Below, piece by piece: positions 31,644 through 35,216 of a stretch of 64,000 nucleotides of DNA (position 1 is the stretch's first letter; each line of letters starts with the position of its first letter). The notes below the pieces were generated by a model. That model did no database searches, was not told the DNA's origin, and saw only the letters and a program-made list of their open reading frames with translations. This stretch comes from an uncultured Pseudomonadales bacterium (lineage in GTDB: Bacteria; Patescibacteriota; Microgenomatia; UBA1400; Chazhemtobacteraceae). The position numbers and the translations under genes are program-made. Location: assembly GCA_964422035.1 (NCBI GenBank), contig CAYQZQ010000001.1, forward strand, positions 377,013 to 441,012. The letters are read 5' to 3'.

Positions 31644-31890
31644 AACAGAAAATATTTTAGCATGAGTAAGCTAAAAACCCCACCAGAAAGGTGGGGTAAT
31701 AGAATACTATCATCTGAGAAGCGGCAAGAACTTGAGTATGCAACGATTGATTTGTTTAGCAACTAACCAATAAAAGTTGGGTGTGTATTCCCATAAATGG
31801 GCGAGCTCGTGAAAACTCCTTTTTCAACACTCCTTAGAAAGGAGGTGATCCAGGCGCTCCTTCCAGAACGCCTACCTTGTTCAAGTAGTT

Positions 31891-32593
31891 CCCAGTATTA
31901 CTACGGGCATGGACTATCTCTTCAACCTTTTTAATGCCTTTATCTTTTCTGGATGTGATGATCCGATTATTCTACAAAAATCCATGTGGGATCTTGTAGA
32001 AATGTAGAATCTCCAGTAATTAGGATCTGCTTTCTTGCTAGGATTGTGAATCTTACCGCAAGAAATATTCAACTTAAACAAGTAATCCCTTACTTGTTTT
32101 AAGTCATTCAGATCTTTCTGAGCAAAATAGATATAAAATCTAACTTTGCTACTTTTAGCTATTCCTCCATCAGCGTCAAAATAACCACGAATATAGTTGA
32201 TTCTATCTTTCCTGTTGGATAATTTATAATCCTTGAGCAAAGATTTAGAGAATTCAACTATGTATACTGAACGGTTTTTTCCTTCTTTATAGATCCAGGC
32301 CTTAACGCCTAGTTTTCTAATTTCAGAAGCAATAAACTCTACAAAATCTCTCGATTTTTGAGAAATTCTGTAAGTTAGTTTTCGTTCAGTGGCATCGTGT
32401 AAGACGCCGAGAAGATAAGCTTTAGACATCCACTTTAGGTGCTCGCGTATAGTCTCTACGGAGTCCCTTTTTAATTGTTAAAAAGGGTTCCCTCGCGGTT
32501 GCCCTTGATTTCAGTAAACCCGAAAGTTAACCGAAAGTCAATAGGGTTTCCCCGATACAGCGAGATTTTACTTGGAAATTACTTTCCAAGGTC
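31891..32593 (-). mobile_element. intron (probably group I) in 16S near E. coli position ~1500-1506, encoding a LAGLIDADG homing endonuclease
   Basis: 16S exon sequence '...AAGTCGTAA' ends at ~32594 (minus-strand sense) and resumes 'CAAGGTAGGCG...GGATCACCTCCTTTCT' at ~31890. The ~700 nt between contain ORF 31914..32429. Boundaries are approximate. Confidence 0.7.
31914..32429 (-). CDS. LAGLIDADG homing endonuclease (two-motif, monomeric type) encoded in the 16S intron
   Basis: First degenerate motif 'YLLGVLHDATE' and second motif 'IRGYFDADGGI'. The 171-aa ORF lies wholly inside the rRNA insertion. Confidence 0.75.
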   Translation of the reverse strand: MSKAYLLGVLHDATERKLTYRISQKSRDFVEFIASEIRKLGVKAWIYKEGKNRSVYIVEFSKSLLKDYKLSNRKDRINYIRGYFDADGGIAKSSKVRFYIYFAQKDLNDLKQVRDYLFKLNISCGKIHNPSKKADPNYWRFYISTRSHMDFCRIIGSSHPEKIKALKRLKR

Positions 32594-33002
32594 GCAACAA
32601 ATTTACGACTTAGCCCCCATCGCCAACCTTGCCTTAAGCGGCCCCGTAAGGGGTACCGACTTCGGGCACTGCTGACTTTGTTGACTTGACGGGCAGTGTG
32701 GACAAGAAACGAGAACGTATTCACCGCAGTATAGCTGACCTGCGATTACTACCGACTCCCCTTCATGTGGGCGAATTGCAGCCCACAATCCGAACTGAGG
32801 AAGGTTTTAAAGGATTAGCTCAAGATTACTCTGTCGCAACCCGTTGTACCTCCCATTACACCATGTGTGTGGCCCTAGACATAAGCGCCATGCTGATTTG
32901 ACGTCGTCCCCTCCTTCCTCCCTGATTGTACCAGGGCAGTTCCGCATGAATATTTAACATACGGTAGGGGTTGCGTTCGTTACCGCACTTAAGCGGACGC
33001 CT

Positions 33003-33258
33003 CCAAAATGTTTGAACATTACTCCAAACGTAGACTATACCTTCATCCTTTTATGTTAAAAGGAGCTGGCGTGTTATTCACATCAATAATTTGCCAAAAA
33101 GGCAGAATGTGAATCTTCATCTTGAAAATCAAGAATCTAGTCGTTACAGGGTCAATCAAGTAGAACTTGACGACTTCCCTCGGGGTTACCCTTTTTACAG
33201 GGGTTCTCCGATATGAGCCAGATTTGTCATCACCGTTACCGGTGAAGGTCGCGAAGCG
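33003..33258 (-). other. ORF-less ~255-nt insertion in 16S (E. coli ~1070-1090 region): either a third intron or an expansion segment
   Basis: Conserved 16S blocks '...GGGGTTGCGTTCGTTACCGCACTTAAGCGGACGCCTCC' and 'ATTCACGACACGAACTGACGACAACCATGCAG' are contiguous in other 16S genes. Here they are separated by an AT-rich segment with no credible ORF. Confidence 0.5.
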
Positions 33259-33982
33259 TAATTCACGACACGAACTGACGACAACCATGCAGCAGCTGTG
33301 CACCACCCTCGAAGGCGACTCCCTTTCAGGAGCTTGCAGGTGCATGTCAAATCTAGGTAAGGTTCTTCGGTTTGTATCGAATTAAACCACATGGAACGCC
33401 GGTTGTACGTTTCCCCGTCAATTCCTTTGAGTTTTAGCCTTGCGACCGTACTCCCCAGGCGGAACACTTAACGCGTTAGCTTGCGCCAGCCAGAAATAAA
33501 AATTTCCAGCCAGCTAGTGTTCATCGTTTACGGCTAGGACTACCTGGGTCTCTAATCCAGTTTGCTACCCTAGCTTTCGTTCATTAGCGTCAGTATGGTT
33601 CTAGATGTCTGCCTTCGCTCTTGGCGTTCCTCTCGATATCAACGGGTTTCACTCCTCCACCGAGAATTCCAACATCCCCGAACCTACTCTAGTCAAACAG
33701 TTTGGCGAGCTTTTCCCTAGTTGAGCCAGGGGATTTAACCCGTCACTTATTTAACCGCCTACGAACCCTTTACGCCCAGTAAATCCGGATAACGCTTGCA
33801 CCCTACGTATTACCGATGCTTCTGGCACGTAGTTAGCAGGTGCTTTCTAGAGAGGTACCGTCAGAACTTCTTCCCCCTCCACAGTGGTTTACAACCCGAA
33901 GGCTGTCATCCCACACGCGGCGTCGCTGCGTCAGACTTTCGTCCATTGCGCAATATTCCCAGTTGCTGCCACCCGTAGGTGT

Positions 33983-34734
33983 AGAACCCGTCATGTAATT
34001 CCCTCTGTTTCCAGGGGCATGGACTATATCTTCAGTCCTCAATTAGATTGAGGAGGTCAGCGTGTGATGAGCCGAAAAATCGAACTCATCTCACCTACTA
34101 TAAATAGTAGGATCAGTCTCTACGGGGTTATAGATAATCGTTGTTTAACCTCTTGGGCAATGTCATTGATGTACTCTAGTTTTGGTTTTCTTGAGTTAGC
34201 CAAACGCATTTGTTTGGCTATATCAAGAGCTGCCAGAAAAGAATTAAAATCAGTGTGCCTATCATGAGAATTAATAATTTCAAGAGCCCAAAGAGCTCTT
34301 TGTTTTTTAATTTTTAGATAGGGTAATAATTGAGGCAAGATCTGCCTAACTTTTCTGGAGCCACCCATCTCCCACTCAACCTGATTATGGTTGGCGTAGT
34401 GATGAAGATAACCAGTCTGAAGAGTTTCTTTTACCCAGTTTAAAACGTCAGCATCTTGCGGTCTTTGGGTGATACTCACCTTTATGTTGATAATCCAGAG
34501 AAAAACTCTGCGTTCATCTTTCAAAAAGGCTGGCCTAATACTGCCATCACCATCGATAAGACCAGCTAGATAAGCTGCGTCTGATTGGTTAATAACGACT
34601 TCCGAACTTCCCACGGTATTGCCATACAAAAAAATAATATATCCTCAGTAAACCCGAAAGTTTACCGAAAGTCAATGATTTTGTTTAGGTTTCACCGTTA
34701 TTAGCTGAATTTGTCTGCACAGTTACCTGTGCAG
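33983..34734 (-). mobile_element. intron (probably group I) in 16S near E. coli position ~337-340, encoding a LAGLIDADG homing endonuclease
   Basis: Upstream exon ends '...TGAGATCAACACGGGTC' (~34735). Downstream exon begins 'ACACCTACGGGTGGCAGCAACTGGGAATATTGCGCAATGG' (33982 downward). The ~750 nt between contain ORF 34120..34629. Boundaries are approximate. Confidence 0.7.
34120..34629 (-). CDS. LAGLIDADG homing endonuclease (single-motif, I-CreI-like homodimeric type) encoded in the 16S intron
   Basis: 'AAYLAGLIDGDGSI' canonical LAGLIDADG motif. The 169-aa ORF lies inside the rRNA insertion. Confidence 0.8.
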   Translation of the reverse strand: MYGNTVGSSEVVINQSDAAYLAGLIDGDGSIRPAFLKDERRVFLWIINIKVSITQRPQDADVLNWVKETLQTGYLHHYANHNQVEWEMGGSRKVRQILPQLLPYLKIKKQRALWALEIINSHDRHTDFNSFLAALDIAKQMRLANSRKPKLEYINDIAQEVKQRLSITP

Positions 34735-35216
34735 GAGACCCGTGTTGATCTCAGTGTTCTTGTGGGGGGTCGTGCTCTCACACCCCCTACCCGTCATAGC
34801 CTTGGTAAGCCATTACCTTACCAACTAGCTGATAGGAAGCAGGCTCCTCCATCGGCGAACAGTTACGTTCTTTTATCTTGCGATGTTATGCGGTATTAAC
34901 CAATCTTTCGACTGGTTATTCCCCACCAAAGGGTAGATTCCTACTCGTTACTCACCCGTCTGCCACTAAAGCTCCGAAGAGCTTTCGTTTGACTTGCATG
35001 CTTAAGGCACGCCGCCAGCGTTCATCCTGAGCCAGGATCAAACTCTCATAAAAGAATTTGAATCCATAAACTAATAAATTAGTTTAGGCTTAGATTCGAA
35101 TTGACGTTACATACCCTTCCTGCCACTTCTCAAATGACAGAAGGATAATTTGTTAAGGTGCCATACAGTGTCTTATGAAAACTGCTTATACATTGTACCG
35201 TTTTTGTGAATATCTA

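Follow-up and report, generated by a model that had tools for sequence, protein, structure and literature searches.

Three group I introns, two of them with predicted homing endonucleases, in a single bacterial 16S rRNA gene

Results

Organization of the interrupted 16S rRNA gene

The minus strand of a 64,000-nucleotide stretch of contig CAYQZQ010000001.1 (referred to here as the window, positions 1 to 64000) carries a 16S rRNA gene that is interrupted at three places by insertions belonging to the group I introns. An earlier reading of the window (the original prediction) had proposed a gene of about 3.2 kb containing two introns with homing endonucleases and a third insertion without an open reading frame (ORF), the class of the last being left open. 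The three interruptions were located and their boundaries set by reading the sequence by hand and by aligning the spliced gene to the 16S gene rrsB of E. coli K-12 and to intronless alleles from the candidate phyla radiation (CPR). The resulting gene is composed of the following parts, with E. coli numbering used throughout.

31836..35053, minus strand: 16S rRNA gene including introns, 3,218 nt, with exons totaling 1,478 nt
34748..35053, minus strand: exon 1, 306 nt, E. coli ~1-328, with the 3' end ...ACUGAGAU
33992..34747, minus strand: intron I1 (S328), 756 nt, group I, between E. coli 328 and 329
33265..33991, minus strand: exon 2, 727 nt, E. coli 329-1078
33004..33264, minus strand: intron I2 (S1078), 261 nt, group I, ORF-less, in the GNRA loop of helix 36 after U1078
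32605..33003, minus strand: exon 3, 399 nt, E. coli 1079-1498
31882..32604, minus strand: intron I3 (S1498), 723 nt, group I, after U1498 in the decoding-center sequence AAGUCGU/AACAAGG (slashes mark splice junctions)
31836..31881, minus strand: exon 4, 46 nt, E. coli 1499-1542, containing the anti-Shine-Dalgarno sequence CACCUCCUU

The ends of the gene were fixed by two terminal motifs. The 5' motif AGAGTTTGATCCTGGCTCAG has a single exact match, on the minus strand at 35046..35027, and the 3' motif GGATCACCTCCTTTCT a single match on the same strand at 31851..31836. Together they place the gene at about 35053..31836, in agreement with the proposed 3.2-kb span; the proposed 3' end at 31845 falls inside the terminal motif and had to be moved to 31836. 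An Rfam scan of the window scored SSU_rRNA_bacteria at 980 bits and returned this gene as the sole small-subunit rRNA, in addition to one tRNA. The coordinates of that match (32556..34095) were rejected, as the whole model had been forced into the uninterrupted middle of the gene, and the alignment was used instead.

The spliced exons align end to end with the E. coli 16S rRNA, without frame-like disruptions and with the conserved motifs intact. At all three sites the predicted junctions are identical to intronless CPR alleles, which read ACTGAGATACGG at 328 (predicted junction ACTGAGAT/ACGG), GTGTCGT/GAGATGT at 1078 and AAGTCGTAACAAGGTA at 1498 (junction AAGTCGT/AACAAGGTA). For I2, a boundary of the form GTGAAT/...GGAG/ was rejected in favor of U1078/G...UUUUG/GAG. 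The latter was accepted because it restores helix 36, fits the U·G pair of paired region P1 and equals the intronless alleles; it is the only boundary that restores helix 36 as GUC-GUGA-GGC. The positions of the exons also give a concrete form to the primer failures expected by the original prediction: I3 splits the target of primer 1492R (AAGTCGT/AACAAGGTA), and primer 515F faces three mismatches at its site (GTGCCAGAAGCATCGGTAA).

Structure of the three introns

The Rfam check that had been proposed for the insertions was carried out as a relaxed scan of 31400..35400. It returned a match to Intron_gpI (RF00028) on every insertion, with 34.3 bits for I3 (E = 3.2e-6), 31.4 bits for I2 (E = 2.4e-5) and 22.0 bits for I1 (E = 0.016), all of them below the gathering score of 50 bits, while no group II intron family matched in the same interval at E <= 1. 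The single Rfam model copes poorly with large ORF insertions and with the extra hairpins P7.1 and P7.2, and the group I assignment therefore rests on anatomical features. In each of the three introns the 5' exon has as its last base a U, which is engaged in P1 in a U·G wobble with the internal guide sequence. The P1 helix is made by GAGAU and GUCUC in I1, by GUCGU/GAA and UUCGCGAC in I2 (GUCGU with GCGAC) and by GUCGU and GCGAC in I3. Each intron also ends in the expected terminal G (omega-G), within ...ACAUG in I1, ...UUUUG in I2 and ...ACUUG in I3.

The three introns can be aligned with one another through P2-P6 and P7-P9 and are therefore paralogues. They differ in their peripheral elements. 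The two extra hairpins P7.1 and P7.2, which follow the 5' strand of P7 and precede the 3' strand of P3, are present in I1 and I2 and absent from I3. The ORF of I1 occupies the P6 loop, and that of I3 the P8 loop. Hairpins P7.1 and P7.2 between P7 and P3 are a trait of subgroup IA in the Michel-Westhof classification, as exemplified by the phage T4 td intron. I1 and I2 carry both hairpins and are tentatively assigned to this subgroup, whereas I3 shares their core sequence without P7.1 and P7.2.

Comparative support for the intron fold

Metagenomic loci of other CPR lineages or organisms (designated by L-numbers) were used for comparison. Homologues of I3 occupy the identical site in three other CPR lineages (L037, L041/42 and L044/45), with the ORF always inside P8. 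RNAalifold analysis of this S1498 family recovered P1, P2, P3, P4, P5, P6, P8 and P9, with compensatory changes in 19 of 47 pairs. When P7 was added as a pseudoknot, 97.4% of the cells were paired, compared with 31-45% in controls slid by 1-3 columns; the same controls gave 0-4 compensatory pairs against the 19 observed, and not one of 500 shuffles matched any observed measure. P7 itself is invariant, and covariation is accordingly neutral on it, speaking neither for nor against this helix. The 3' strand of P3 in I3, which Rfam had placed inside the ORF, was reassigned to the GCGAG segment right after P7, where the homologues show compensation.

For I1, the only close relative at the same junction is the S328 intron of L035/L036/L074, which displays compensatory changes in P2, P7.1, P7.2, P8 and P9. 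The 16S gene of the L035 relative has ~150 nt more than that of the window in the region of helix 6 / V1 (L035 1843-2017). The S1078 site is represented by an ORF-less homologue of I2 at L079 406-633, in which exon and guide co-vary, GCCGU with GCGGC replacing GUCGU with GCGAC. A joint alignment of I1- and I2-type introns showed compensatory changes in 23 of 38 pairs, and RNAalifold supports its core. Two ORF-less relatives in L079 exceed the Rfam gathering score, at 54.9 and 50.6 bits, and the 50.6-bit intron carries the 20-nt core of I1 described below. The L079 locus (1-1306) is itself a 1.3-kb CPR 16S fragment in which no more than 350 nt of exon accommodate three ORF-less group I introns, located after ~U1060, after U1078 and after ~U1406, and it is intronless at 1498. 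By anatomy and covariation, all three insertions in the window are group I introns, which supplies the class of the ORF-less insertion I2.

Two LAGLIDADG endonucleases of different architecture

The proposal of two homing-endonuclease introns is borne out by the ORFs of I1 and I3, both of which score above the Pfam gathering cutoffs for LAGLIDADG families.

34120..34629, minus strand: HE1 ORF in I1, at most 169 aa, single-motif LAGLIDADG_1 protein of the I-CreI/I-MsoI type
31914..32429, minus strand: HE3 ORF in I3, 171 aa, LAGLIDADG_3 protein with the motifs YLLGVLHDAT and YIRGYFDADGG

The LAGLIDADG_1 match of HE1 reaches 34 bits, the cutoff being 23.1. Its likely start is the GTG at 34614, which would give a protein of 164 aa; this GTG is conserved in L036, and protein P0121 is 164 aa long. 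A phmmer search of the Protein Data Bank (PDB) retrieved I-MsoI (5e-12) and I-CreI (1e-7), and the alignments include the LAGLIDGDG, ITQR and IKKQ motifs. HE1 aligns with these enzymes over its full length and conserves the LAGLIDADG aspartate together with the Q and K pocket residues, and on this similarity it is predicted to adopt the alpha-beta-beta-alpha-beta-beta-alpha fold of LAGLIDADG enzymes. Because HE1 has a single LAGLIDADG motif, a homodimer is predicted, as in the I-CreI/I-MsoI enzymes. Its inferred 22-bp intronless target at 328, AGAACACTGAGATACGGGTTCT, is also pseudo-palindromic, with 14 of 22 positions symmetric. HE1 is set apart from I-CreI and I-MsoI by a distant sequence relationship (E = 5e-12 to 1e-7), by an activity that is predicted, and by its target at 16S position 328, the two known enzymes being encoded by group I introns of chloroplast 23S genes. 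The protein is rare: among 5.8 billion clusters, HE1 itself aside, a single one has 65% identity and a few others have at most 35%.

HE3 matches LAGLIDADG_3 with 59.7 bits against a cutoff of 22.5, and its stop codon lies inside the 3' strand of P7 of I3. It belongs to a large family, with 890 hits that are typically 60-70% identical and that come, where named, from Patescibacteria or Woesebacteria. An alignment of 36 members shows two LAGLIDADG-like motifs in which D12 and D85 are invariant. The AlphaFold (AF2) model of HE3 has a predicted local distance difference test score (pLDDT) of 93 and consists of two alpha/beta halves. Foldseek superposed the full length of the model on I-DmoI (E = 2e-9, template-modeling (TM) score 0.70) and on I-Tsp061I, an archaeal 16S-intron enzyme. 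The PDB yielded no match to HE3 at the sequence level (E > 0.1). The model therefore looks like a very compact monomeric pseudo-dimer and not like a single-domain protein.

HE3 has in common with I-DmoI and I-Tsp061I two LAGLIDADG helices with an invariant acidic residue on each, a monomeric state (predicted for HE3) and an asymmetric target; its presumed 22-bp intronless target at 1498, GGCTAAGTCGTAACAAGGTAGG, has only 4 of 22 positions symmetric. It differs from both in its length (171 aa compared with 188-204 aa), in the lack of a detectable sequence match, and in its location, a bacterial group I intron where the other two come from archaeal bulge-helix-bulge introns. The symmetry of both target sites would thus fit the architecture of the respective enzyme, HE1 as a predicted dimer and HE3 as a predicted monomer. 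Located ~230 nt downstream of the 3' end of the 16S gene in L039 (3240-4020), a contig labeled as a Hadarchaeaceae archaeon, is a free-standing HE3 homologue with 61% identity. The 16S gene of that locus has a ~29-nt insert within AAGTCGTAAC...AACAAGGTA, at or beside the presumed target of the HE3 homologue.

BLASTP detected no relationship between HE1 and HE3. Because the two proteins are unrelated by this measure and reside in different loops (P6 and P8), they were acquired separately and are not duplicates of one another.

Intron spread and exchange of a hairpin module

Introns at several 23S and 16S sites of other metagenomic organisms (L047-L084) have the 20-nt P3-P4 core of I1, CAGCTAATAACGGTGAAACC, in identical form, which indicates that one intron lineage occupies many ribosomal DNA (rDNA) sites. 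A metagenome scan with this 20-mer produced 38 loci, only one of which (L074) is at position 328. From the flanking exons, read by eye, most of the loci are 23S genes interrupted near 1931, 2449 and 2500, and some are 16S genes interrupted near 1406. That 37 of the 38 loci lie elsewhere than 328 points to ectopic transposition of such an intron into the 16S gene.

A 29-nt hairpin module, GACTTTCGGTWAACTTTCGGGTTTACTGA, was found by blastn-short in two copies in the window.

34645..34673, minus strand: copy 1 of the 29-nt hairpin module, P5 extension of I1
32511..32539, minus strand: copy 2 of the 29-nt hairpin module, P5 extension of I3

The two copies are identical at 28 of 29 positions, and neither the I1 homologue in L036 nor any other locus fetched has the module. 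Its presence in both I1 and I3 suggests an exchange between introns within one gene. The S328 intron with its endonuclease was found in one other lineage only and is the sole uncommon part of the locus. It is possible, if somewhat less than probable, that this intron and its I-CreI/I-MsoI-like endonuclease represent an undescribed 16S homing site, reached by ectopic transposition from a lineage residing mainly in 23S genes, and that introns within one gene exchange structural modules.

Host assignment and genomic neighborhood

The 515-region signature of the gene was searched for in GTDB genomes, and all 30 species-representative genomes that carry it are Patescibacteria. These genomes are only distant relatives (70-73% identity over the 16S gene), and none of the relatives found by this 16S-signature scan has I1, I2 or I3. 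The named best matches of the release-factor gene in the window are in Collierbacteria and the Patescibacteria group, and its nearest relative is 70% identical. Judged from these sequence affinities the host is a deep-branching CPR/Patescibacteria bacterium, probably within the Microgenomates.

The contig from which the window comes has a length of 725,544 bp. The 16S gene is followed by a tRNA gene and then directly by a gene for an NAD-dependent epimerase (30580-31650).

31568..31643, minus strand: tRNA-Ile(GAU), downstream of the 16S gene

The 64-kb window contains neither a 23S nor a 5S gene, and the rRNA genes appear to be unlinked here. Beside the tRNA/16S locus lies a block of ~15 kb (15900-30520) with a plus-strand GC skew of +0.4 to +0.65, in which G accounts for ~30% and C for ~9% of the bases; the skew stops sharply at 30.5 kb. 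At third codon positions it amounts to +0.5 to +0.8 in both gene orientations, and as a result the plus-strand proteins are rich in G, W, V and E and the minus-strand proteins in Q, H, P and T. Translations read by eye include glycosyltransferases, O-antigen-ligase-like proteins and an ATP-binding cassette (ABC) exporter, a putative polysaccharide synthesis set. Foreign origin, or relaxed selection under strong mutational bias, are possible sources of the skew. Third-position skew over the whole window is positive on the plus strand regardless of gene orientation (+0.1 to +0.5), with the same sign and a weaker magnitude outside the block, and the majority of genes are on the minus, C-rich strand. 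The window also contains two very large minus-strand ORFs of 1,157 aa and 2,316 aa at 3900-15076.

Discussion

The results indicate that a CPR 16S rRNA gene is broken up by three paralogous group I introns, inserted at E. coli positions 328, 1078 and 1498, two of which encode homing endonucleases, and we consider this interpretation to be about 90% probable. It is supported directly by the intron boundaries, by a fold with covariation, by the protein families with their catalytic residues and by homologues at the same sites. Several observations weigh against it. None of the three introns in the window reaches the 50-bit Rfam gathering score. P10, judged by eye, is short, with 3 bp in I2 and I3 and ~2 bp in I1. 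The covariation sets, of 4-5 sequences, are small, and they were aligned after manual removal of the ORFs. The start codon of HE1 falls within P4/P6, and no obvious Shine-Dalgarno sequence precedes the HE1 or the HE3 ORF.

The low Rfam scores and the short P10 are also what could be cited for a different fate of the transcript, in which the insertions are removed and the pieces left unligated, as with RNase III-type intervening sequences, so that the 16S rRNA is fragmented; in a variant of this idea splicing is wholly dependent on proteins. Unligated intervening sequences are known from bacterial 23S genes and are possible in CPR, according to the text of Tsurumaki et al. 2024 (PMC11270868). 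This possibility is nevertheless improbable here. All three insertions possess a complete group I core with the U·G splice-site pair and the terminal G, and the core is accompanied by covariation. Pairing between the insertion ends has energies of -18.2, -19.7 and -13.7 kcal/mol compared with shuffle means of -16.1, -15.3 and -13.2 (standard deviation ~3), and the end duplexes are within ~1.4 standard deviations of the shuffles. Because the end pairing is no stronger than in shuffled sequence, there is no RNase III-type terminal stem. The insertion sites, moreover, are in universally conserved core sequence that includes the decoding center.

An origin of the locus as an assembly chimera, or its being a 16S pseudogene in decay, is still less credible. 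Intron-rich rRNA genes do assemble poorly, and the Logan assembly split this locus into pieces. That separate assembly (SRR7048227, probably the source run of the window) nevertheless equals window positions 30943..33444 at 100% identity, with a 1,615-nt match across I2 and I3 likewise at 100%; since it spans both introns, this stretch is contiguous in a second assembly, and the arrangement of I1 recurs in other samples. The end-to-end alignment of the exons with the E. coli gene, with its conserved motifs intact, and the unusual 515-region signature common to 30 CPR genomes are also at odds with a chimera or a pseudogene. Retention of the inserted segments in the mature rRNA as expansion segments, the alternative named by the original prediction, has nothing specific in its favor and is very improbable, as the insertions have the anatomy of group I ribozymes and contain protein-coding genes, I3 lies between U1498 and A1499 of the decoding center and I2 in the tetraloop of helix 36, intronless alleles exist at the same sites in related lineages, and published CPR transcript data, as presented in the text of PMC11270868, show removal.

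Splicing, exon ligation and endonuclease activity of the three group I introns can be projected from their anatomy and from what is established about group I chemistry. Three ribozyme cores would fold in the 3.2-kb precursor. At each of them an external guanosine would attack after the exon-terminal U, which is held in the U·G wobble with the internal guide sequence, and the released 5' exon would then attack after the intron-terminal G, so that ligation of the exons would yield a 16S rRNA of 1,478 nt. At the DNA level, HE1 and HE3 would cut intronless alleles at the rDNA sites of their own introns, and double-strand-break repair would copy the intron in. HE1 would act as an I-CreI/I-MsoI-type homodimer on a pseudo-palindromic site and HE3 as a compact two-domain monomer on an asymmetric one. 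I2 is an ORF-less member of the I1/I3 intron family.

The locus is an instance of a known phenomenon, and publications on CPR already include both the 1498 site and the enzyme families. Protein-coding 16S introns had been put forward by the original prediction as a hallmark of CPR bacteria, which agrees with the host assignment and with the account of Tsurumaki et al. 2024 (PMC11270868). The text of that paper reports insertions in ~48% of CPR 16S genes, describes several group I sites in conserved 16S sequence, among which it names site 1498, and states that LAGLIDADG_3 proteins are confined to 16S insertions. It also describes ORF-containing and ORF-less versions at one site and signs of ectopic transposition, and cites Brown et al. 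2015 for insertions that are widespread in CPR and removed from transcripts. As far as this text goes, the introns of the window resemble the published ones in being 16S group I introns with LAGLIDADG endonucleases, often of ~170-180 aa, and I3 with its LAGLIDADG_3 protein corresponds to the published site 1498; sites 328 and 1078 were compared with the text only, the numbered sites being given in the figures. A difference concerns the LAGLIDADG_3 proteins, which the text treats as single-domain proteins with an N-terminus outside the domain, whereas the N-terminus of HE3 appears from the model to be a second, cryptic LAGLIDADG domain.

Self-splicing 16S introns have been established experimentally in giant sulfur bacteria (Salman et al. 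2012, as described in papers citing it). On the same descriptions, those bacteria likewise have multiple group I introns in one 16S gene, some with LAGLIDADG ORFs. Their host phylum is a different one. The insertions of the giant sulfur bacteria reportedly lie at positions 795, 1078, 1396 and 1495; if these positions are right, site 1078 is shared with the window.

The current understanding of these introns is left unchanged by the locus. It provides a fully delimited case of one rRNA gene whose function would depend on three prior splicing events; two of these affect sequence critical to function, and one is at a site that splits the decoding center. With its split 1492R site and its mismatched 515F site, the gene shows why such organisms evade amplicon surveys. 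It also offers two compact endonucleases of contrasting predicted architecture, each with a defined natural target in universally conserved rDNA.

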